From the sequence record NC_107631.1: a stretch of 50,078 bases of DNA, one strand, 5' to 3'. This DNA is from a phage. This document shows positions 4,453 through 50,070 of this stretch, one piece after another (the first letter of the stretch is position 1; the number at the start of each line of letters is the position of its first letter). The notes below the pieces were generated by a model, which was given only the letters and a program-made list of their open reading frames with translations, did no database searches and was not told the origin of the DNA. A program made the translations under genes and the position numbers.

Positions 4453-4481
4453 GATATAGCCTCTTTGTTTTCGATGTGGTT

Positions 4482-6250: not shown

Positions 6251-6437
6251 TGGTTAGTTTCTCCACGTCAGAGATGAAGCCTTCGACTTCTTCAACTGAG
6301 CAACGGTAATAAGACATTTTAAGGAAGTTCATAGCAATATCCCAATCGAAGTTGCCGCCTTGCTTGTTCGTAATGTGAACAGCCATTTTTGCGGACTGTT
6401 GAGCGATATTGAAAAAGTTTGCGTTAATGCGTGCCAT
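6228..6437 (-). CDS. hypothetical protein
   Basis: Start moved to Met6, preceded by GAGGAATCAG, the conserved RBS context seen at other genes. Confidence 0.5.
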   Translation of the reverse strand: MARINANFFNIAQQSAKMAVHITNKQGGNFDWDIAMNFLKMSYYRCSVEEVEGFISDVEKLTNADKKTR

Positions 6438-9958: not shown

Positions 9959-9977
9959 TGTCACGGCTATTAATCCT

Positions 9978-10006
9978 TTGAATCGTTGTAACGTTTACGC
10001 TATAAT
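9978..10006 (+). promoter_or_regulatory. strong sigma70 early promoter for the HTH regulator gene
   Basis: TTGAAT-N17-TATAAT. Confidence 0.6.
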
Positions 10007-10045
10007 ACACGGCATACAGTAAACGTTTTTAGCAAAAAGTGCTAT
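10002..10045 (-). promoter_or_regulatory. dyad-motif promoter driving the helicase operon, overlapping the divergent early promoter
   Basis: Dyad TTAGCAA-AAA-GTGCTAT (ATAGCAC-TTT-TTGCTAA on minus) with TATTAT 28 nt downstream on the minus strand; the same dyad lies in the 5'UTR of the plus-strand transcript. Confidence 0.5.
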
Positions 10046-10057
10046 AGGAGAATTAAG

Positions 10058-10510
10058 ATGAGTATTCAACGTATCGCAGAGTCAACTGGTGAAATCGATA
10101 AACGTCACATCAATGGTAACAACGGAACACGACGCGGTAAAGATAAAAAGCCACGACAGCGCTGCGGATTCTATATTCATAAAGAAGAAACACGCGCAGG
10201 ATTGCGAGCACGACTTGATGCGCTTATCGAATATTATGGTGGCCCTGCGGCCTGCGCAAAGGCTCTAAAAGTTAGCAATCAGACGGTGCAAGGCTGGAAA
10301 GAACGCAATATGATTTCATGGCAAGGTGCTGAAGCTGCGCATCGTGCTTACCGCCGACAGGGGTGTAAAGGGTTTAGGGCCGCATGGTTGCGATTCGACC
10401 TGAAGTTTGACGGTAACGGCAAGTGCATTGAGAAGCGATGCAAGAACAAGAAGTTTATGCGAGTGGTGAAGAAGGAAGATATCGGGACGACCAATAGCAT
10501 TTTTAGTTAA
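10058..10510 (+). CDS. HTH DNA-binding protein, candidate transcriptional regulator
   Basis: Cro/C1-type HTH signature (AKALKVSNQTVQGW); basic protein; RBS AGGAG. Confidence 0.6.
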   Translation: MSIQRIAESTGEIDKRHINGNNGTRRGKDKKPRQRCGFYIHKEETRAGLRARLDALIEYYGGPAACAKALKVSNQTVQGWKERNMISWQGAEAAHRAYRRQGCKGFRAAWLRFDLKFDGNGKCIEKRCKNKKFMRVVKKEDIGTTNSIFS

Positions 10511-10571: not shown

Positions 10572-11507
10572 GTGAACGAAGAATTTATGATGTTTCAGAA
10601 AGAGGACGTTTTGCCGTACATGAAGGGGTTATGGCGCGAGGCTTTCCAGTCCGTATGCGGATTACCGAACGAGGTTTTCAACAAGAAGCACCAACCTTGC
10701 CCTAACTGTGGCGGCAAGGACCGTTTTCGCTGGACCGATAACTTAAACACTCCGGGCGACGGCGGCGCGATCTGCAACTCATGCGGGAACGATTCCGGGA
10801 TCGGGTGGCTAATGAAATTAACTGGCATGCCGTACAGTGAATGTATAAACATCCTGGGGAGATTTCTCGGAAAGGTTCCACAGGAATACATTGTTAAGGC
10901 AAACAAGAAAGCACGCAGGACTCCGGTCTCTGGCGTCAACGTCATGATGGCAGACCATGAAGCAGTAATGAAAGTTATGGAGCGTACAGAGAAGCGCGTA
11001 AACACACCCCTAAGCATTTTTGAGTCGCTACCCACTGAATCATTCGACGTTGGCGTAAAACGTCGAGAAGATGGCGGGGAGAGCGTATTTCACACTATCC
11101 CGTGTCAACTTGTGCACGAGGATGGACTTGATGACGAGTTTTGCAATATTTTGATTATTGATGAAGAAGGGAGGGAGTCATTTTACGCTAAGAAATATAC
11201 GAGTTGCTCGGTTGCCGTGACTGGTAAAACTGAAAAGGCGATCTACTTATGCCTGAACTGGATTGATGCTCAGCATATTGCATTTCACACAAAGCAAGAG
11301 GTATGGGCCTGCTTCACTCCTGAAAACCTAGAAATGGTTGCGTACAGGTATAAAGGTGATCGAGAAGTAAGAGTGGCGTGCGAACCTTCGGACAAGGAGA
11401 CTTTATACATGGCAGACGACCGACAATTAAAAATAATCATCCCGAATCCTGGAGGATACCGTTCAGGAATGCAAGTCAAATTATTCTCAGCAAGTGACCT
11501 ACTCTAA
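10572..11507 (+). CDS. putative DNA primase-like protein with zinc-ribbon
   Basis: CPNCGG..(N)..CNSCGN zinc-ribbon typical of primases; possible TOPRIM-like IIDEEG; GTG start per track, ATG alternatives 15-18 nt later. Confidence 0.5.
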   Translation: MNEEFMMFQKEDVLPYMKGLWREAFQSVCGLPNEVFNKKHQPCPNCGGKDRFRWTDNLNTPGDGGAICNSCGNDSGIGWLMKLTGMPYSECINILGRFLGKVPQEYIVKANKKARRTPVSGVNVMMADHEAVMKVMERTEKRVNTPLSIFESLPTESFDVGVKRREDGGESVFHTIPCQLVHEDGLDDEFCNILIIDEEGRESFYAKKYTSCSVAVTGKTEKAIYLCLNWIDAQHIAFHTKQEVWACFTPENLEMVAYRYKGDREVRVACEPSDKETLYMADDRQLKIIIPNPGGYRSGMQVKLFSASDLL

Positions 11508-11530
11508 CCGCCTTTGGGCGGTTTTTTATT
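11506..11530 (+). terminator. intrinsic terminator
   Basis: AACCGCC-tttg-GGCGGTT then T-run. Confidence 0.7.
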
Positions 11531-11535
11531 GCCCA

Positions 11536-11564
11536 TTGCAAGGCAGGTATCACAATGATAAAAT
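11536..11564 (+). promoter_or_regulatory. sigma70 promoter for the tail-fibre gene
   Basis: TTGCAA-N17-TAAAAT; predicted transcript starts at the dyad motif. Confidence 0.5.
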
Positions 11565-11570
11565 CTGTGC

Positions 11571-11587
11571 TTAGCAATTCGTGCTAT
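11571..11587 (+). promoter_or_regulatory. dyad element in 5'UTR next to RBS
   Basis: TTAGCAA-TTC-GTGCTAT, 6 nt before AAGGAG. Confidence 0.6.
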
Positions 11588-11607
11588 TTACTTAAGGAGT
11601 TTATACT

Positions 11608-13473
11608 ATGGCTTTATATAGACGCGGTACTGCATCAATGGATGCAGACGGCACGGTTCACGGAACCGATACAAAATGGAAAGATCAGCTTGCTCTGATT
11701 CGAGTCGGTGCAACTATCGTATTCCTGGAGCAACCGATTAAGCTGGCGGTAATCAGCGATATTGTGAGCGATACGGAAATGAAGGCTATCTCTACGGATG
11801 GTCAGACTGCAGCTGACGGAAAGTATGTGATCTTGCTTAGCGATTCACTAACCGTTAACGGGCTTGCGCAAAACGTTGCTGAGACGCTTCGATACTATCA
11901 AAGCAAAGAGACTGAGATCGCGGCAGCTATAGACCTGATAAATCAGCTTGACATGACTAAACTTGAGCAAATAGTTACTGAAGTGAATCAGGCAAAATCT
12001 GATGCTCAAGATGCGCAAGGTCAGGCTGAACTAGCTCGTGATGCCGCTAACGCTGCGCGCGATGAAACCAACTCAATCAAGGACCAGGCTCAGGGAATTG
12101 TTGACGGCGCTGTCGATGGAATTAATGCCGCAAAAGACCAAGCGATCACAGATGTAGGCGCTAAAGAATCTGCGGCGGTTACGCACATCGACACGGAAGA
12201 GGCGGCAGCTATTCAGGCAATCAATGACGCTAAAGGCGATCTATCCGGGTATGTTAATGACGCTCAAACAGCTGCACAAACAGCCACATCTGCAAAGAAC
12301 GATGCTCAGTTGGCGCGTAATGATGCTGTTAGCTCAAAAGATGCGGCGGCGGTAAGTGCTCAGGAAGCGAAAGACGCAGCAAATAGCATTAATGCTGAAA
12401 ACCTTTTAACTAAGGATGGAAACCTGGCAGGTTTAACAGATCCAGAGGAGGCAAGGTACAACCTAAAACTGACTGAGTGGGGGTTGTTAAGTGACGCATC
12501 ATCTGCTGGTGTTTCTGATATAAACGCAATATCTGTAAACTGCAATTACAGCGTGCCACCAAAAAACACCAATAATTTAACTGGTACATATCCATTTGAG
12601 CACGTTCAAAATCTTGATGATGGTTGGTTAATTCTTGAAACACGTATGCATCCAGATCCTAATTATGGAATTCAGAGGGCTACTCAATTCACAGGCAATT
12701 CCGCTGGCTCCGTTAGCGTGAGATGCAAGATCAATGGAGCTTGGGGGAATTGGGGTCAGGAAAGAGGATCGCATGGATATCTTGCAAACGTAATACTTGA
12801 CAGAGCAACATTTAGATCTGTCGGTACTGCTTCTGGAGGTGCTGGGGCGTTGGTTGGCGGTGGAGTTGAGGGTGGTGCGTATCAACAATGGAGAGATAGA
12901 GCTACTGGATTACTGGTTGAGGCAATTGCGAAAGATGCAGCGGTATCAATATTCAAGAGTGTAATGTGGGGCCAAGATTGGATTGGGGGTCTTGATTGTG
13001 TTCTATGGGGTGCTGGCAGTAAGGAGATGAAACTTTATACTGGTGGCGCTGAGTTCACTTTTAATTACGCAGGAGTAGCTACAGCAGCTCAGTGGACAAG
13101 TACATCTGATATCAGGCTGAAAACAAATCTTAATAAAATTGAGTCGGCAACCGAGAAAGTGGAGAGGCTCGTTGGTTATACTTACTACAAGAGAAACACC
13201 ATTGAAGAAACTGAAAACTCAAGGTATGAGATTGAGGCTGGTATAGTAGCTCAGGATCTTGAAATGGTTCTACCTGAGGCTGTTCTTAGCATAAACAGCA
13301 AAGGTGAACTCGACCCTAAAAGAGAGGGTATTAAGAGTGTCAATTATGCTGGAGTTGCGGCACTTCTTGTTAACGCATTTAACGAGCAGAAGAAAAGGTC
13401 TGATGAAATGGAGTTAAAAATAAATGAAATGATAAAGGAGATTGACGAAATCAAAAAACTATTGAACAAGTAA
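11608..13473 (+). CDS. tail fibre protein with C-terminal intramolecular chaperone (peptidase S74-like) domain
   Basis: N-terminal coiled/repeat region rich in D-A-Q/A-A-N-A; C-terminal SDIRLKTNL..VGYTYYKRN..EAGIVAQDLE resembles the self-cleaving chaperone domain of T5 pb1/endosialidase fibres. Confidence 0.8.
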   Translation: MALYRRGTASMDADGTVHGTDTKWKDQLALIRVGATIVFLEQPIKLAVISDIVSDTEMKAISTDGQTAADGKYVILLSDSLTVNGLAQNVAETLRYYQSKETEIAAAIDLINQLDMTKLEQIVTEVNQAKSDAQDAQGQAELARDAANAARDETNSIKDQAQGIVDGAVDGINAAKDQAITDVGAKESAAVTHIDTEEAAAIQAINDAKGDLSGYVNDAQTAAQTATSAKNDAQLARNDAVSSKDAAAVSAQEAKDAANSINAENLLTKDGNLAGLTDPEEARYNLKLTEWGLLSDASSAGVSDINAISVNCNYSVPPKNTNNLTGTYPFEHVQNLDDGWLILETRMHPDPNYGIQRATQFTGNSAGSVSVRCKINGAWGNWGQERGSHGYLANVILDRATFRSVGTASGGAGALVGGGVEGGAYQQWRDRATGLLVEAIAKDAAVSIFKSVMWGQDWIGGLDCVLWGAGSKEMKLYTGGAEFTFNYAGVATAAQWTSTSDIRLKTNLNKIESATEKVERLVGYTYYKRNTIEETENSRYEIEAGIVAQDLEMVLPEAVLSINSKGELDPKREGIKSVNYAGVAALLVNAFNEQKKRSDEMELKINEMIKEIDEIKKLLNK

Positions 13474-20500: not shown

Positions 20501-20986
20501 TACATCGGTGAGCACCGTCTCAAACGAGCCGCCATCAACAGCTTGTTGCACCTCATACTCAACTCTTACGCCGTTTTTATCACCGTTGCTTTCAATTCGT
20601 ACGCCGCGAGGCATAAACATTTTGATACGGATTGCCGAAAGTGTTTTGTTGGTTACTGAGATCGTGTATGGGTTATCTGTAGTAACCTCACGGTTTACAG
20701 TTACCTCACTAGAGCTATCTTCCATCCCCTTGATATATTCCTGAGTCTGCGTCCCCGGCCTAAACTCTGCCTTTACTCCCTCGAAGTTAAATGAGCCATC
20801 CTCGTTTTGCACCGGGACTGAGTTAAACATCAACTGCTTTAGGCTGAATGTTTCGTCAATCTCGCCATCAGACACAGCTAACAGGATCTTGATTTTGTTG
20901 ATTGAGATTAGATTATCTTCCATCTCAACTGGCTTATGCGGCTTAGGTGAACCGCCTTTCGATCCGCTTATCACTTTTTGAATCAT
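17567..20986 (-). CDS. tail tip / central fibre protein (lambda gpJ-like)
   Basis: 1139 aa; position after gpI/K/L/M-like genes; fibronectin-like and coiled repeat segments. Confidence 0.85.
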   Translation of the reverse strand: MIQKVISGSKGGSPKPHKPVEMEDNLISINKIKILLAVSDGEIDETFSLKQLMFNSVPVQNEDGSFNFEGVKAEFRPGTQTQEYIKGMEDSSSEVTVNREVTTDNPYTISVTNKTLSAIRIKMFMPRGVRIESNGDKNGVRVEYEVQQAVDGGSFETVLTDVIEGKTMSGYDRSRRVNLPNFNNQVIFRVVRKTPDSNDSNVVDAIQVKSYAEVIDAKFRYPLTGLLFVEFDSKMFPNQLPTISIRKRWKIVNVPSNYDPESRTYNGNWDGTFKKAWTNNPAWVLYDLMINQRYGLDQKELGISVDKWALYEAAQYCDQMVPDGKGGTEPRYLCDVIIQSQTDAYKVIRDICSIFRGMSFWNGESISVIIDRPREPAYIFTNDNVVNGDFSYTFASEKSMYTTCNVMFDDEQNMYQQDVEPVFDREATLRFGNNVTSITAIGCTRRSEANRRGRWILKTNLRSTTVNFATGLEGMIPTIGDVVAIADNFWSSNLTMNLSGRLLEVSGSQIFLPFRVDARAGDFIIVNKPDGKPVKRTISSVSADGKTIEVNIGFGFPVKPNTVFAIDRTDLALQQYVVTKIDKGDDDEEFTYKITAVEYDPNKYDEIDYGVNIDDRPTSIVEPDQIPKPENVKVSSESRIVQGMSVETMIVSWDKVPYAVFYDVQWRKDNGNWQNVPQTANKEVYVEGIYAGNYQVRVRSVAGSGTTSGWSNIVAATLTGKQGEPGRPINLTATDDVVFGIRTKWGFSDGSGDTAYTELQQSPDGTVDNASLLSLIPYPQHEYYHSPMPGGNIVWYRVRTVDRIGNVSQWTDFVRGMASTNVDDIIGEISVDIENSPGYKWLVDNATDNAAQNAANAEAAIENALANDKDAIYMKRENGKRKAEYTKSLKLIVDETQARVTAIEQLKASFGDQISASNSELREVIATETGALSREIDQLRAEIGDDIQASLTDIREAIANETEARTQADLSLSARLGDNEAALSQKLDSWSNADSTGAMYGVKLGLKYNGQEYSAGMAMSLIGSGAAVKAQILFEASRFAIMTGMNGQTQYPFVVEGNQVILNSAIIKNGFITNAMIGNFIQSNNYVFNQSGWRLDKGGTFENYGSDGEGAMKQTNTTISVRDASGRLRVQIGRLTGSW

Positions 20987-21033
20987 GATGTTTACCTTTT
21001 TGTGCTATTTATCGGTGAACCCATTATACAGGC

Positions 21034-26984: not shown

Positions 26985-27311
26985 TTAGTTGTTTTGCTTA
27001 GCAATCATTTCAAGCGCTTTCGCTTCCATGATCCTAACGTCCTGCAATGCCAGTTCTTCATCTTCTATTTTATAGATTTTGAACAACATAGGCAAAACAT
27101 TATAGTCAAGACCATAAGCTCCAGCGCCTGAACTTCTCCACTGAGTGAGCATTGACGTAAAAACATTCCACGCCTTCACCATTTCAGCATCGCCGATTAT
27201 CGTTTCCGGTTCCTCGTCTTCATAGTCAGAAAGACTGAGGCCAACCGATCTTAATTGCTCTTCTGTTGGCGGTTTCTGATATAACAGATAAACCGCCCTT
27301 TTTAGTTTTTT
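26985..27311 (-). CDS. tail assembly chaperone frameshift extension (GT-type -1 frameshift product)
   Basis: The -1 frame is open from slippery heptamer A-AAA-AAC at the 3' end of 27302..27619 through to 26985, just before the tape measure gene. Confidence 0.5.
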
Positions 27312-27619
27312 GCGCGGTGTCCTGCGAGCGCCTTGATGTAAGTTGCCGTCAGATTGTACGCTGCTGAAGGATAATACTGTACCAGTTTACGCGCATTCTC
27401 TTCGTTAAATTCTTCTTCCAGATTCCATCCTGATGCGATCTTAGTGATGAAATCGCTATCATTCATTTCGCCCTGCTTCGCATACATATCTTGCACTTCT
27501 TTACTGGAAAGGTGGCGTACTGTAAAAATAATAGTCGCATCCTCGCCGTTTGGCATGGTGAACGTCACCGGAAGTTTGAAGTCTGGAAGCTGCCCCAACA
27601 CGAAATTGAATTTAGCCAT
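27302..27619 (-). CDS. tail assembly chaperone (gpG-like)
   Basis: Position between major tail and tape measure genes; ends in slippery site; conserved CAACCAATCAGGAG RBS. Confidence 0.6.
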   Translation of the reverse strand: MAKFNFVLGQLPDFKLPVTFTMPNGEDATIIFTVRHLSSKEVQDMYAKQGEMNDSDFITKIASGWNLEEEFNEENARKLVQYYPSAAYNLTATYIKALAGHRAKN

Positions 27620-27640
27620 GATGTTTCTCCTGATTGGTTG

Positions 27641-27657
27641 ATAGCACTTTTTGTTAA
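27641..27657 (-). promoter_or_regulatory. dyad element immediately upstream of RBS
   Basis: TTAACAA-AAA-GTGCTAT on the coding strand, directly abutting CAACCAATCAGGAG. Confidence 0.5.
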
Positions 27658-27700
27658 AAGTTAAGTGAATAAAGTTGATAGGATGATTTTACAGAAATGA

Positions 27701-27726
27701 ATAAGGGGGCGCAAGCCCCCTATGGA
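27701..27726 (-). terminator. intrinsic terminator/attenuator
   Basis: GGGGGCTTGCGCCCCC hairpin followed by TTATT on minus strand. Confidence 0.5.
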
Positions 27727-30389: not shown

Positions 30390-31349
30390 TTACACGCCAG
30401 TGATTAAGACAATAGTCATCGGGCGATAAATTGTAAGACCAGTACACTTAGAGGTGCAAGGCACTTTAAAGTGCAAGTCTTTCGGTTGTGCTGGCAGCAT
30501 GTTAAATGCTTCCGGGATCTCGATGGACATGTTCATCGGATTCTTTTCGTACACCAGTACGCCTTTAGTGCCTGCGCCGTCAATATCCTCAAGCTCTGCG
30601 ATAGAGTCGATTTCGATACCGGAGTTCTGAGACTTAAAATAGTCCAGGTAAGACATGGTTGTCTCAGGCATACGAATCGCCAAAACCTTACGCATGGAAG
30701 GCGGGATCAGGATGTTGGTAGCTCGGTGCTGGCCTCGAGTAATCGTCTCGATGGTTTCGATCGCCTGAGTCAATTCCGCTTCAGCCGTTTCCGGTTTCTG
30801 AGTTGCGCCATCCATCCACTTACCGGAGGTAATTTTGGTGATGTTTGGATGATTGAACACGGACACAATCTTGTGCGGCGCGGAACCTTTGAACACCAGG
30901 CGGTTAACAAGCTGATCATGCGCCAACTGGCACGCACTTGCCTTACGGGTTGACAGTGGGCGACCAGTTGCCTGACCTGCTTTGATTTCGTCGATTGAGA
31001 TCAGATACGCGTTACCCAGACGGAACACCTTGCCAAACTCAGAAGTACCCAGGGCATCAACAAGCGGCAGGTCATCGGTGTAGTCAGCGATAATCTGAGC
31101 CGTACCAACCTTATCAAAGGTCATGTATTCAAACGCCTTGTCGGTCGGAGATAGATCGGTTGTAACCGGGAATACGCGTAGAGCGGAGCCTACCGGGTAG
31201 TCTTCTTCATAGGACTGGCTTTTGATGCGGTGTAGTTCCTGAGCGGTCCAGATACCCATCGTTGCGGCTGCATCCTGTTTTACGCCAGCCTGGATCAGAT
31301 ACATTTCAACATTGCTTTTATCTGCTTCATCAAATTTTTTAGTAGTCAT
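30390..31349 (-). CDS. major capsid protein
   Basis: 319 aa; sits after a scaffold/protease-like gene and decoration-like genes; strong promoter plus 5' hairpin. Confidence 0.65.
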   Translation of the reverse strand: MTTKKFDEADKSNVEMYLIQAGVKQDAAATMGIWTAQELHRIKSQSYEEDYPVGSALRVFPVTTDLSPTDKAFEYMTFDKVGTAQIIADYTDDLPLVDALGTSEFGKVFRLGNAYLISIDEIKAGQATGRPLSTRKASACQLAHDQLVNRLVFKGSAPHKIVSVFNHPNITKITSGKWMDGATQKPETAEAELTQAIETIETITRGQHRATNILIPPSMRKVLAIRMPETTMSYLDYFKSQNSGIEIDSIAELEDIDGAGTKGVLVYEKNPMNMSIEIPEAFNMLPAQPKDLHFKVPCTSKCTGLTIYRPMTIVLITGV

Positions 31350-31400
31350 GATTACTTCTCCGTAGTTAATAAAAAAGCCGTGATTATGTTCACGGCTTCA

Positions 31401-31429
31401 ATAATAGCACTTTTTGTTAAAGCGTCAAA
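31401..31429 (-). promoter_or_regulatory. sigma70 promoter with embedded dyad element, upstream of the major capsid gene
   Basis: On minus strand TTTGAC-N17-TATTAT with TG extension; the spacer contains TTAACAA-AAA-GTGCTAT; followed by hairpin AAGCCGTG..CACGGCTT and T-run. Confidence 0.5.
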
Positions 31430-38107: not shown

Positions 38108-38632
38108 CTACAGCAATCCAATAACCTTGTCTACCGCGTCCTTCATTGCATCCTCAGTAGTGGCGACCACTGTCGATGCGGAGGCTGACGAGTTTTCGAT
38201 ATTTATTGAGGCTGGCTTATCGATTCCGAGATCCTTACCGATAAAGGAGGCATTAATAACACCGTTGGCGGCAAGCTGAAATTTTTGCTCGTTGATTACG
38301 GATTCCACGAACTCCATAACCTCACTGTATTCTTCCTCACGCTTCCACTTAATGATTGCGGCCTCGCTTGCACCGATAAATAGTCGGTATCCGGTCCAGG
38401 TGAAGACGCGCGGCTTATGAACAAGCGATTCATAAACGCCACCCTGAAAGCTGGCTGATTCTGACGCCTTTATCGCATTGTCTTCAGCCCATTCGAAATA
38501 CTTAACTGACAGATCGAATAGTTGCTCAGGCGTCATTGCCCGGTTCTTCGCAAGAACAGTGCCGAACTTTTTCTTGTATAGCTCTTTGAAATTACCTCCC
38601 TGAACAACGGGGGCGTTCTTAGGTTCACTCAT
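38108..38632 (-). CDS. putative terminase small subunit
   Basis: Position upstream of the large terminase; start moved to Met9 with AGAGGG RBS. Confidence 0.45.
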   Translation of the reverse strand: MSEPKNAPVVQGGNFKELYKKKFGTVLAKNRAMTPEQLFDLSVKYFEWAEDNAIKASESASFQGGVYESLVHKPRVFTWTGYRLFIGASEAAIIKWKREEEYSEVMEFVESVINEQKFQLAANGVINASFIGKDLGIDKPASINIENSSASASTVVATTEDAMKDAVDKVIGLL

Positions 38633-38649
38633 AAATCCATCCTCTTTGT

Positions 38650-38666
38650 TTAACATTTAGTGCTAT
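38650..38666 (-). promoter_or_regulatory. dyad element just upstream of the putative TerS RBS
   Basis: TTAACAT-TTA-GTGCTAT on plus strand; TGGTAAAAT extended -10-like sequence adjacent on minus strand. Confidence 0.4.
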
Positions 38667-40421: not shown

Positions 40422-40453
40422 TTTGATTTTCTCTCTTCGTTGTCGATGAGGTA

Positions 40454-40497
40454 ACTATATCAAATCACCCCATCGACGTTTTAGCAATTCGTGCTAT
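40454..40497 (-). promoter_or_regulatory. dyad-motif middle promoter
   Basis: ATAGCAC-GAA-TTGCTAA; TGaTATAGT extended -10 28 nt downstream inside inverted repeat GTCGATG..CATCGAC. Confidence 0.55.
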
Positions 40498-41708: not shown

Positions 41709-41748
41709 GATTTATTCCTCTGATTGGTTGCTTAACTCAACGAAGGGC

Positions 41749-43802: not shown

Positions 43803-43842
43803 AGCTGATTCCTCTGATTGGTTGCCATGCTTCAATAAGGCC

Positions 43843-43886
43843 ACTATATCAAATGGCCTTGCGGAAGGTTTAGCAATTCGTGCTAT
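43843..43886 (-). promoter_or_regulatory. dyad-motif middle promoter (cassette family B)
   Basis: ATAGCAC-GAA-TTGCTAA then TGaTATAGT 28 nt downstream inside inverted repeat GGCCA..TGGCC. Confidence 0.55.
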
Positions 43887-45173: not shown

Positions 45174-45205
45174 CTTCGTTTCCTCTGTATCGTGTCGATG
45201 AGAAG

Positions 45206-45249
45206 ATAATACCCGATCCGCTCGATCGGGCTTTAACAAAAAGTGCTAT
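45206..45249 (-). promoter_or_regulatory. dyad-motif middle promoter (cassette family A)
   Basis: ATAGCAC-TTT-TTGTTAA then TATTAT 28 nt downstream after inverted repeat CCCGATC..GATCGGG. Confidence 0.55.
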
Positions 45250-46828: not shown

Positions 46829-46859
46829 CTTCGTTTCCTCGTTCGTTGTCGATGGGATA

Positions 46860-46903
46860 ACTATACCAAGCTATCCCGATCCAGCTTTAACAAAAAGTGC
46901 TAT
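46860..46903 (-). promoter_or_regulatory. dyad-motif middle promoter (cassette family A)
   Basis: ATAGCAC-TTT-TTGTTAA then TGgTATAGT 28 nt downstream inside inverted repeat GGGATA..TATCCC. Confidence 0.55.
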
Positions 46904-47911: not shown

Positions 47912-47928
47912 ATAGCACTTTTTGCTAA
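47912..47928 (+). promoter_or_regulatory. dyad element without an obvious -10 partner
   Basis: ATAGCAC-TTT-TTGCTAA; no -10-like hexamer at +28 on either strand. Confidence 0.4.
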
Positions 47929-48116
47929 AAATGGAGATGACTACCAGGCGAACCGGGTAACACCAATTCCTCCCTCTCACAATCATTGCAATCTCAGCAA
48001 CAAATCAACCAACTGTTGCACACCATGCAATAATCACGTTTCATCATTCGCAATCAATAACAATCAAAATTATTCCACCTATTCCAGTATTGATGGAATA
48101 ATGAGCAATTATTGAA

Positions 48117-48161: not shown

Positions 48162-48193
48162 TCGGGCCATCAACCAATCAGGAGAATCACCAT

Positions 48194-50034: not shown

Positions 50035-50070
50035 GGCCTTATTCAAGATAACCAATCAGGAGTTAACACC

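Follow-up and report, generated by a model that had tools for sequence, protein, structure and literature searches.

A marbox-like promoter box of T1-like phages and its copies at late-gene promoters

Short intergenic repeats of T1-like phages have already been described. In phage TLS they were published in 2024 as the 21-nt 'direct repeats' DR1–DR18, with the consensus aaATAGCACnnnTTGnTAAAA, and similar repeats were reported for T1, Rtp and Rogue1 (PMC11447400). The TLS authors proposed a comparison with the stoperators of mycobacteriophage L5 and left the function of the repeats undecided among a stoperator, an enhancer site and an UP element (PMC11447400). The closest host element is the site of the regulators MarA, SoxS and Rob, which the Grainger laboratory gives as the non-palindromic sequence 5'-gcannwwntgnnaaa-3'; class II marboxes are those in forward orientation that overlap the −35 position, with a centre between −36 and −55 (PMC12052159). 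Structural papers write the marbox as CAC(T/G)-7N-AAA, or as an A site GCAC plus a B site CAAA, and describe micF as a class II promoter with its site centred at −41 to −41.5. MarA, SoxS and Rob have been described as direct repressors of pbpG, whose promoter carries a marbox in its spacer (PMC12052159), and purA, hdeA and rob are cited as other cases of direct repression.

The window analysed here is the complete, permuted genome of a T1-like phage (Tunavirus, Drexlerviridae), 50,078 bp in length, which is 91–93% identical to JMPW1, Eco_BIFF and T1 along long stretches. A preliminary description of this DNA had pointed to a 17-nt dyad at four of its genes, in or next to the transcribed leader, and its identification of these genes as tail fibre, tail chaperone, major capsid and small terminase agrees with the Pfam assignments and annotation given here. 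The 17-mers are where it placed them, with the letters TTAGCAATTCGTGCTAT at 11571–11587, ATAGCACTTTTTGTTAA at both 27641–27657 and 31404–31420, and TTAACATTTAGTGCTAT at 38650–38666. The genes concerned are as follows.

11608–13473, plus strand: tail fibre gene, with Pfam Peptidase_S74 in the 621-residue product
27302–27619, minus strand: tail assembly chaperone (TAC) gene, Pfam Phage_TAC_4 (E = 2.6e-37)
30390–31349, minus strand: major capsid protein (MCP) gene
38108–38632, minus strand: small terminase (terS) gene of the gp3 type, Pfam GP3_package
10058–10510, plus strand: gp23-like regulator gene, ATG at 10058
start at 9964, minus strand: helicase gene, divergent from the gp23-like regulator gene

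The box and its match to the marbox

The pattern TAGCA-N5-TGYTA occurs at 16 distinct positions in the window (24 strand matches) against 0.20 expected, which establishes the box family as real; the 17-mer family lies about 30–100 fold above chance. The element is an oriented 20-bp box, AATAGCAC-N3-TTGYTAAAA, and serves as a general promoter box of the Drexlerviridae. A logo was built from 78 copies in five genomes, aligned in the direction of the downstream −10. The resulting consensus reads AATAGCAC[T/G]WWTTGYTAAAAc, followed by approximately 14 uninformative bases, tGnTATAAT and a CA at the expected start site. What had been labelled a dyad is better described as an asymmetric box. In about 60% of sites the TAGCA/TGCTA halves mirror each other at four of the five core positions, yet the symmetry consistently breaks down at the sixth base and in the flanks. 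Position 1 is an invariant G, whereas position 11, which mirrors it, is a C 47 times and a T 26 times; the C at position 4 stands opposite a T at position 8, and one flank reads AAT and the other AAAA. In the logo of 78 sites complementarity is lacking between the mirror positions 1/11, 4/8 and −2/14.

The distance from the box to the −10 element is fixed. A −10 hexamer lies exactly 20 nt after the 15-nt box core at 89 promoters in six Drexlerviridae genomes, and other offsets account for at most five cases each, except for the overlapping TAT register at 23. The usual box promoter consists of a forward box, 20 nt and a −10 that is often extended, with no −35 partner, and this places the box centre near −41; all positions relative to transcription starts in this account derive from predicted −10 elements. 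On these predicted starts the bulk of the family has the class II layout, in forward orientation at about −41.5 and at a fixed distance from the −10.

The consensus of the phage box fits gcannwwntgnnaaa, CAC(T/G)-7N-AAA and the soxbox GCAC/YAAA without mismatch, and likewise the longer form AYnGCACnnWnnRYYAAAY, with GCAC and YAAA seven bases apart. Exact matches to the marbox pattern number 17 in the window, 20 in T1, 19 in TLS, 14 each in Rtp and KP36 and eight in ESP2949-1, where shuffled sequences give about 0.5 per genome (0.64 for the window). The copies at the TAC, MCP and terS genes have no mismatch to the consensus, and those at the fibre gene and at a J-like tail gene have one each. 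Positions T−1, A0, T8, T9 and T12 of the phage box are more conserved than the marbox consensus demands.

Host sites were compared in the same way. The micF site of Escherichia coli MG1655 reads GCACTGAATGTCAAA-N20-TAGAAT, with the RNA start 8 nt after the −10, so that its spacing equals the N20 of the phage; it carries one mismatch to the consensus. The fumC site has two mismatches and a spacing of N19. As a second host class II example, nfo showed no forward box with two or fewer mismatches in 105 nt. The mar marbox, GATTTAGCAAAACGTGGCAT, when read on its other strand, has TTTTGCTAAA in common with the phage box. Judged by these matches, the phage boxes are better marboxes than the host micF and fumC sites. 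A sigma-54 promoter (TGGCAC-N5-TTGC) was rejected on inspection because the two GC dinucleotides of the box stand two bases too close together.

A literature search found no transcription start maps, binding data or expression data for T1-like phages and no paper tying these repeats to MarA, SoxS or Rob. The element itself has already been published, and it is its marbox identity and its systematic dual placement, described below, that appear to be new.

Copies at late-gene promoters and at the regulator gene

Besides the four copies at the fibre, TAC, MCP and terS genes, two like copies had been overlooked, one at the J-like tail gene (20989–21008) and one at the gp23-like regulator gene (10026–10045). 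The copies and the promoter elements around them are listed below.

11536–11564, plus strand: fibre promoter, TTGCAA-17-TAAAAT with a TG extension, just after a terminator at 11506–11523
11568–11587, minus strand: fibre copy of the box, ATAGCACGAATTGCTAAGCA, reverse relative to the gene, at about −4 to +16 of the predicted fibre promoter
27641–27660, plus strand: TAC copy of the box, ATAGCACTTTTTGTTAAAAG, reverse relative to the gene, at about +20 to +39 of the sense leader
27679–27684, plus strand: antisense −10, TAGGAT, exactly 20 nt after the core of the TAC box
27686–27693, minus strand: extended −10 of the TAC sense promoter, TGTAAAAT, 1 nt from the antisense −10 (terminator at 27721–27704, ATG at 27619)
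31401–31428, minus strand: MCP promoter, TTGACG-16-TATTAT, with 10 of 12 consensus matches and TG before the −10
31404–31423, plus strand: MCP copy of the box, ATAGCACTTTTTGTTAAAGC, reverse relative to the gene, at about −29 to −10 of the capsid promoter
31374–31399, minus strand: terminator-like hairpin of 10 pairs, GAAGCCGTGAACATAATCACGGCTTT plus a T-run, beginning 2 nt after the capsid −10
38647–38666, minus strand: terS copy of the box, ATAGCACTAAATGTTAAACA, forward relative to the gene, at about −8 to +12 (predicted)
20989–21008, minus strand: J copy of the box, ATAGCACAAAAAGGTAAACA, forward, at about +9 to +28 after TGTATAAT (21030–21023), ATG at 20986
10026–10045, minus strand: box between the divergent gp23-like regulator and helicase genes

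The capsid copy occupies the 16-nt spacer of the promoter together with half of the −10, its first three bases. It is 55 nt away from the ATG (31349), and the hairpin sits between it and the ribosome-binding site (context fold −19.8 kcal/mol, z = −4.0). Across capsid proteins of 57–100% identity the spacer box is present, exactly or with one mismatch, in all 55 distinct upstream regions. The layout of −35, reverse box and TGc-TATnAT is likewise found in 55 of 55, while the variant of the −35, the variant of the −10 and the sequence of the hairpin all vary; the hairpin stem differs in sequence among lineages and retains its pairing. A promoter is annotated at the equivalent position in the KP36 record. 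An antisense promoter at this copy was considered and rejected, as TAnnnT stands at N20 in only two of the 55 regions.

At the fibre gene the box starts 4 nt past the −10 and stops 7 nt short of the Shine–Dalgarno sequence (SD) AAGGAG (11594–11599), with the ATG at 11608. The same copy is found in Rtp, also 4 nt after the −10, and it is kept in 12 distinct Tunavirus sequences in which the adjacent 5 nt are variable. An antisense promoter is not suggested here either, with TAnnnT at N20 in none of the 12. At terS the order is terminator (38708–38691), a TAAAAT (38670–38665) fused to the box, and the SD approximately 2–5 nt further on; the first two bases of the box are the last two of the −10. 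Tunavirus has this copy, as do two more distant loci (L118 and L119), and TLS, Rtp, KP36 and ESP2949-1 lack it; in other genera a plain TATAAT promoter is found here. The J copy, which contains the SD, is common to T1, TLS and the locus L137.

The arrangement at the chaperone gene is of another kind. Here the order is terminator, TGTAAAAT, 25 nt, box, 8 nt and SD, and on the other strand the box takes up −50 to −31 of a predicted antisense promoter. The antisense hexamer TAnnnT is present in all 19 distinct upstream regions, from two lineages and with identical spacing, its middle bases being variable (TACGAT, TAGGAT, TAGAGT, TAAGAT). The box, the N20 and the retained hexamer together place the TAC copy at −41 of an antisense promoter after all, so the view that none of the four copies lies near −42 does not hold for this one. 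The class II layout, which is lacking at the sense promoters of the four sites, is found in antisense at 27641–27684. Since a monomer bound at +20 to +39 would be a poor roadblock, any role of the TAC copy rests on this antisense promoter.

A comparable arrangement is seen between the gp23-like regulator and helicase genes. For the leftward helicase promoter (−10 TATTAT, 10007–10002) the box at 10026–10045 lies at −41, and for the rightward gp23 promoter, TTGAAT-17-TATAAT (9978–10006), it covers about +14 to +33. The leftward and rightward −10 hexamers have five of six positions in common. The arrangement is present in all seven genomes examined; some lineages have a gp23 leader without the box.

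The location in leaders close to ribosome-binding sites that was first described is therefore accurate for the fibre and terS copies and, within the leader though not at its 5' end, for the TAC copy, whereas the MCP copy falls within the spacer of its promoter. The copies at the capsid, terS, fibre and J genes all overlap the region of the would-be open complex (about −29 to +28). This overlap with the polymerase footprint, as expected of a repressing marbox of the pbpG type, is found for MCP, terS, fibre and J and not for TAC. GTGCTAT as a stand-alone extended −10 fits the capsid site only, since it would put the start site of the chaperone and fibre messages within the SD.

In our view, which we hold with moderate confidence, the four sites are DNA operators, box copies that would be bound by host MarA, SoxS or Rob and would repress or compete with the late promoters, the direction of effect being read solely from position. 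At approximately 15 promoters the forward box at −41 would recruit RNA polymerase in the manner of a class II activator. The late copies sit where an occupied site could not be expected to activate. At the capsid gene the bound protein would occupy a strong sigma-70 promoter in its spacer and −10, at terS and the fibre gene it would lie across the −10 and the start site, and at J it would lie within the downstream footprint of RNA polymerase. At the chaperone and gp23-like genes the −41 box would instead drive an opposing promoter, and because the −10 hexamers abut or overlap the two polymerases would exclude each other. The net result would be that these promoters are held down for as long as the box-binding protein is available. 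More speculatively, replicating phage DNA, with about 20 boxes per copy, could titrate a host protein of fixed abundance and so bring relief.

Possible readers of the box and alternative explanations

A mismatch-free marbox combined with the spacing of micF suggests that a host AraC-type monomer (MarA, SoxS or Rob) binds the box. Such a host protein is favoured over the Cro-like protein of the phage, and the reader is probably not phage-encoded. A tblastn search of the six phages for a MarA/SoxS-like open reading frame gave a best E value of 0.4, which is a weak negative. Among the host proteins the constitutive Rob is most plausibly the binder (RamA in Klebsiella). MarA and SoxS are scarce in unstressed cells, and T1 grows well in plain broth. 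The model therefore requires either that basal Rob be sufficient for perfect boxes or that the extended −10 elements give useful basal activity, since Rob is reported to activate its targets only once inducers such as bile salts or fatty acids are bound (review, PMC7355843). Phage Vc1, which is recorded as a Vibrio cholerae phage, carries the same boxes; these weaken the idea of a host factor if the Vibrio host is real and has no MarA-type protein of such specificity.

The same DNA logic could be run by a phage protein, in which case the likeness to a marbox would be coincidence or mimicry. We consider this unlikely but worth weighing in full. The main candidate is the gp23-like protein (140–200 residues), which is encoded by all six phages and is the only candidate DNA-binding protein found. 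It occurs in 824 phage records, and all of those listed are T1-like genomes of about 44–53 kb. Its Cro-like helix–turn–helix is indicated by weak P22_Cro and YdaS hits under the Pfam cut-off and by Foldseek, in which the AlphaFold model (pLDDT 81.5) best matches the all-α Cro proteins of Xfaso1 and N15 with a target TM-score of about 0.7. The gene has a canonical promoter of its own that is independent of the box, one of just three sigma-70 promoters that the TLS authors could find (PMC11447400), and in seven genomes it has the box in its own leader, as in an autoregulated divergent switch such as λ OR. Other observations point away from this protein. Its predicted recognition helix is different in seven genera (among the variants are NQTVQGWKER, LKTVWGWKER, PQAVEEWFKR, IQVVQQWRKR, MGTVQQWRIR and VRLTNAYRLR) and takes 21 forms in the 77 IMG/VR loci; nearly every exposed position varies between genera while the box consensus stays constant. 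A variable helix facing an invariant 20-bp box argues against the helix–turn–helix as the reader. In its favour, the N-terminal arm, DKRxxNGNNGT..R, is as invariant as the box and could be the part that reads DNA. The asymmetry of the box is, however, unsuited to a symmetric dimer, and certain lineages lack the box in the gp23 leader. In addition, for a box read by a phage protein, a mismatch-free 10-position consensus in the right orientation and at the spacing of micF would arise by chance in about one case in 10,000 or more rarely.

It is also conceivable, although we judge it unlikely, that the late copies are relics of reshuffled promoter cassettes and do not themselves regulate. The capsid copy would then be kept only because its GTGCTAT provides the TG-extended −10 and because it gives an A-rich spacer of suitable length. 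Across genera the copies at the terS, chaperone, fibre and J genes are indeed patchy, and the chaperone copy resembles a box-N20-(−10) cassette inserted in reverse, past a sense −10 that other lineages have alone. Conservation inside the genus does not speak against relics, since within Tunavirus the variable columns number 2 of 20 in the boxes and 15–19 of 83 in the flanks, a difference that is not significant; for the same reason we do not use within-genus conservation as proof that the box functions. Other observations speak against relics. Spacers are not normally conserved, yet TTTAACAAAAARTGC is kept in the capsid promoters over the whole range of capsid identity, and it stays while the −35, the −10 variant and the downstream hairpin change around it. 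Tunavirus and Rtpvirus agree in the distance between the fibre copy and the −10. Finally, the asymmetric AAA flank is retained in the late copies, where it plays no part in the promoter.

Two further explanations are much weaker. In the first, the late messages would carry at their 5' ends a stem of 5 bp, closed by a loop of 5 nt, that would stabilize them, mark a processing site or tune translation, as the preliminary description had offered beside repression by an operator. Of these roles the operator fits the anatomy of the sites, and the three that depend on RNA we regard as very improbable. Folded in the sense of the mRNA, the 15-mers give −3.0 kcal/mol for fibre, 0 for TAC, 0 for MCP and −0.4 kcal/mol for terS (with a G.U pair), and the predicted stem is therefore stable at one site of four, absent at two and marginal at the third. 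In its favour, the fold of the fibre copy beats 197 of 200 shuffles of the 15-mer, and this copy is predicted to begin at about +1; three of the four copies are also within 2–8 nt of an SD. With contexts of 29–79 nt the z-scores range from −0.1 to +0.4, apart from contexts that take in the separate capsid hairpin. The stem had been judged on the plus strand, and because the TAC and MCP mRNAs are minus-strand an A.C mismatch falls in the middle of it. With its two variants at position 11, one strand offers G-C or G.U and the opposite strand C-G or C.A, the C.A form being that of the TAC and MCP mRNAs. The C/T alternation opposite the invariant G thus pairs on one strand only, which is not stem covariation. 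The J copy is unable to pair, the capsid copy lies upstream of its predicted start, as most of the family lie upstream of their own start sites, and the copies point both ways relative to their genes. Rfam and tRNA searches of the window returned no RNA family and no tRNA.

In the second, which is hardly likely, RNA polymerase would read the box directly as an UP element or a −35-like TTGYTA and the late copies would be neutral or weak enhancers; about −50 to −31 does overlap the proximal UP subsite, the flanks are A-rich and UP elements are among the options of the TLS paper (PMC11447400), but the invariant core is GCAC...TTG and not an A/T tract, TTGYTA as a −35 hexamer would require a 22-nt spacer, and reverse copies in a spacer or past the start site cannot serve as UP elements.

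Significance and comparison with known systems

As a tentative proposal, possible rather than probable, T1-like phages, among them the Klebsiella Webervirus phages used in therapy, may run nearly their whole early programme through host MarA, SoxS, Rob or RamA, activators of stress responses and antibiotic resistance, from about 15–20 perfect class II marboxes per genome, while the same box, reversed or shifted, would restrain the capsid, tail and terminase promoters and its titration would provide the early-to-late switch. A single box that activates, occludes or drives antisense transcription according to its placement would be a compact means of timing late genes in a virulent phage without its own RNA polymerase or sigma factor. 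If this is true, the speed of infection would be tied to bile, salicylate, oxidative or antibiotic stress of the host. If host MarA, SoxS, Rob or RamA do drive the promoters, a very common group of phages of E. coli and Klebsiella would need for its growth the regulators by which the host, under antibiotic, bile and oxidative stress, increases efflux and reduces porins. This would bear on phage–antibiotic combinations, on the behaviour of phages in the gut and on routes to resistance. The marbox match in any case gives a concrete candidate identity to repeats that have been recognized since 2004 in the genomes of T1-like phages and that still counted as unexplained in 2024.

The nearest counterparts are the TLS repeats themselves. 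DR7 of TLS (minus strand, beside terminator T35 and before the capsid gene) corresponds to the capsid copy described here, and DR8 (before tspJ) to the J copy. The TLS paper omits the match to the marbox, the fixed N20 to the −10 and the core-promoter or antisense placement of the late copies (PMC11447400).

Compared with host marboxes and soxboxes, the phage box fits the same consensus and is likewise non-palindromic, oriented and placed over the −35 position. Its promoters resemble the class II promoter of micF (RamA–micF in Klebsiella) in the N20, in a centre near −41 and in a weak or absent −35. The phage boxes differ from host marboxes in belonging to a virulent phage, in their number (14–20 copies per 50 kb) and in being more uniform. 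The capsid copy is like that of pbpG in having the box in the spacer of a sigma-70 promoter; the likeness is one of placement, and repression at the capsid gene would follow from this position.

Two phage systems also offer parallels. In the λ OR/PRM–PR region one set of operators activates from about −42 while opposing a divergent or overlapping promoter, and the gene of the regulator is adjacent. The gp23/helicase (9978–10045) and chaperone (27641–27693) regions resemble this switch, although here there is a single asymmetric site, the −10 hexamers overlap or abut and the phage is virulent. In mycobacteriophage L5 the stoperators all face the same way with respect to transcription, and in lysogens the phage repressor binds them. 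The boxes are like them in being short asymmetric sites scattered over a phage genome, some of them downstream of promoters. They differ in that most boxes precede a start site by a fixed distance suited to activation, and an L5-type stoperator was rejected for the late copies because these occur in both orientations, forward at terS and J and reverse at the fibre, TAC and MCP genes.

Inverted repeats in box promoters and at the capsid promoter

A GC-rich inverted repeat is nearly always present in the 36 nt between the end of the box, the oriented 20-bp promoter element, and the approximate +1 of box promoters (forward box-N20-(-10)). Most of the box promoters carry it, including those at the following window positions.

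40440-40480, box promoter with inverted repeat
43830-43870, box promoter with inverted repeat
45190-45232, box promoter with inverted repeat
46845-46886, box promoter with inverted repeat

The repeat is also found in TLS, Rtp, KP36 and ESP2949-1. Folding of these 36-nt segments from 78 promoters yields an average MFE of -10.6 kcal/mol and an average z-score of -2.8; in 73% of the segments the z-score is below -1.5. Two arrangements are seen: in the first the hairpin takes up the N20 spacer as far as the T-rich -10, as in TLS, where one such hairpin is the annotated terminator T62; in the second the -10 lies between the two arms, as in AAGGCCAtttgaTATAGTGGCCTT. The repeat could be a terminator nested in the following promoter, could serve as a signal for RNA processing or could form a cruciform in the DNA.

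A terminator-like hairpin also lies 5' of the capsid gene.

31374-31399 (-), terminator-like hairpin

The hairpin begins 2 nt downstream of the capsid -10, which places the predicted start site (~31394) inside its 5' arm. Read-through RNA from upstream would encounter the complete terminator, and RNA from the capsid promoter might have no more than a shortened stem, or else a hairpin at its 5' end. Lineages differ in the sequence of the stem, with pairing retained.

Shared leader and initial transcribed sequences

The leader and ribosome-binding motif AACCAATCAG(G/A)(A/G)G has five exact and four one-mismatch copies in the window, compared with 0.27 expected, and is also found 5' of genes in KP36 and IMG/VR relatives. 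It may represent a translation-initiation context borne by duplicated promoter-leader cassettes. An initial transcribed sequence, CATCGA(C/A)AAC, is common to several early box promoters and begins about 5 nt downstream of the -10; allowing at most one mismatch, there are 22 matches versus 8.4 expected.

27627-27639 (-), leader motif
41717-41729 (-), leader motif
43811-43823 (-), leader motif
48172-48184 (+), leader motif
50050-50062 (+), leader motif
4467-4476 (-), CATCGA(C/A)AAC
40439-40448 (-), CATCGA(C/A)AAC
46845-46854 (-), CATCGA(C/A)AAC

The gp23-like regulator and its divergent promoters

Two opposed promoters in 9978-10045 have one near-palindromic -10 in common, and both are enclosed by an 8-bp inverted repeat, ACGTTTAC...GTAAACGT.

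10001-10007, common -10, TATAATA
within 9978-10045, rightward, TTGAAT-17-TATAAT, gp23-like regulator gene
within 9978-10045, leftward, box-N20-TATTAT, helicase gene

Residues 5-34 of the gp23-like protein, the candidate regulator encoded at 10058-10510 (+), comprise the near-invariant RIAxSTGEIDKRxxNGNNGTRRGKDKKPR. Across seven genera this segment, which is probably disordered (pLDDT ~55 for the segment), is far more conserved than the HTH of the same protein. Its target may be DNA or a protein, either RNA polymerase or a host regulator.

Box copies outside the usual setting

A perfect box, ATAGCACTTTTTGCTAAAAA, at 47912-47931 (+) lacks a -10 at N20 and lies at the point where the two early arms diverge; the same copy is found at position 103 of T1. 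The late region of Rtp contains complete forward box-N20-(-10) promoters at 6319, 8428, 16306 and 21396 (+), placed 3' of terS, terL and the major tail gene. Thus, the box is not confined to early genes in every genus.
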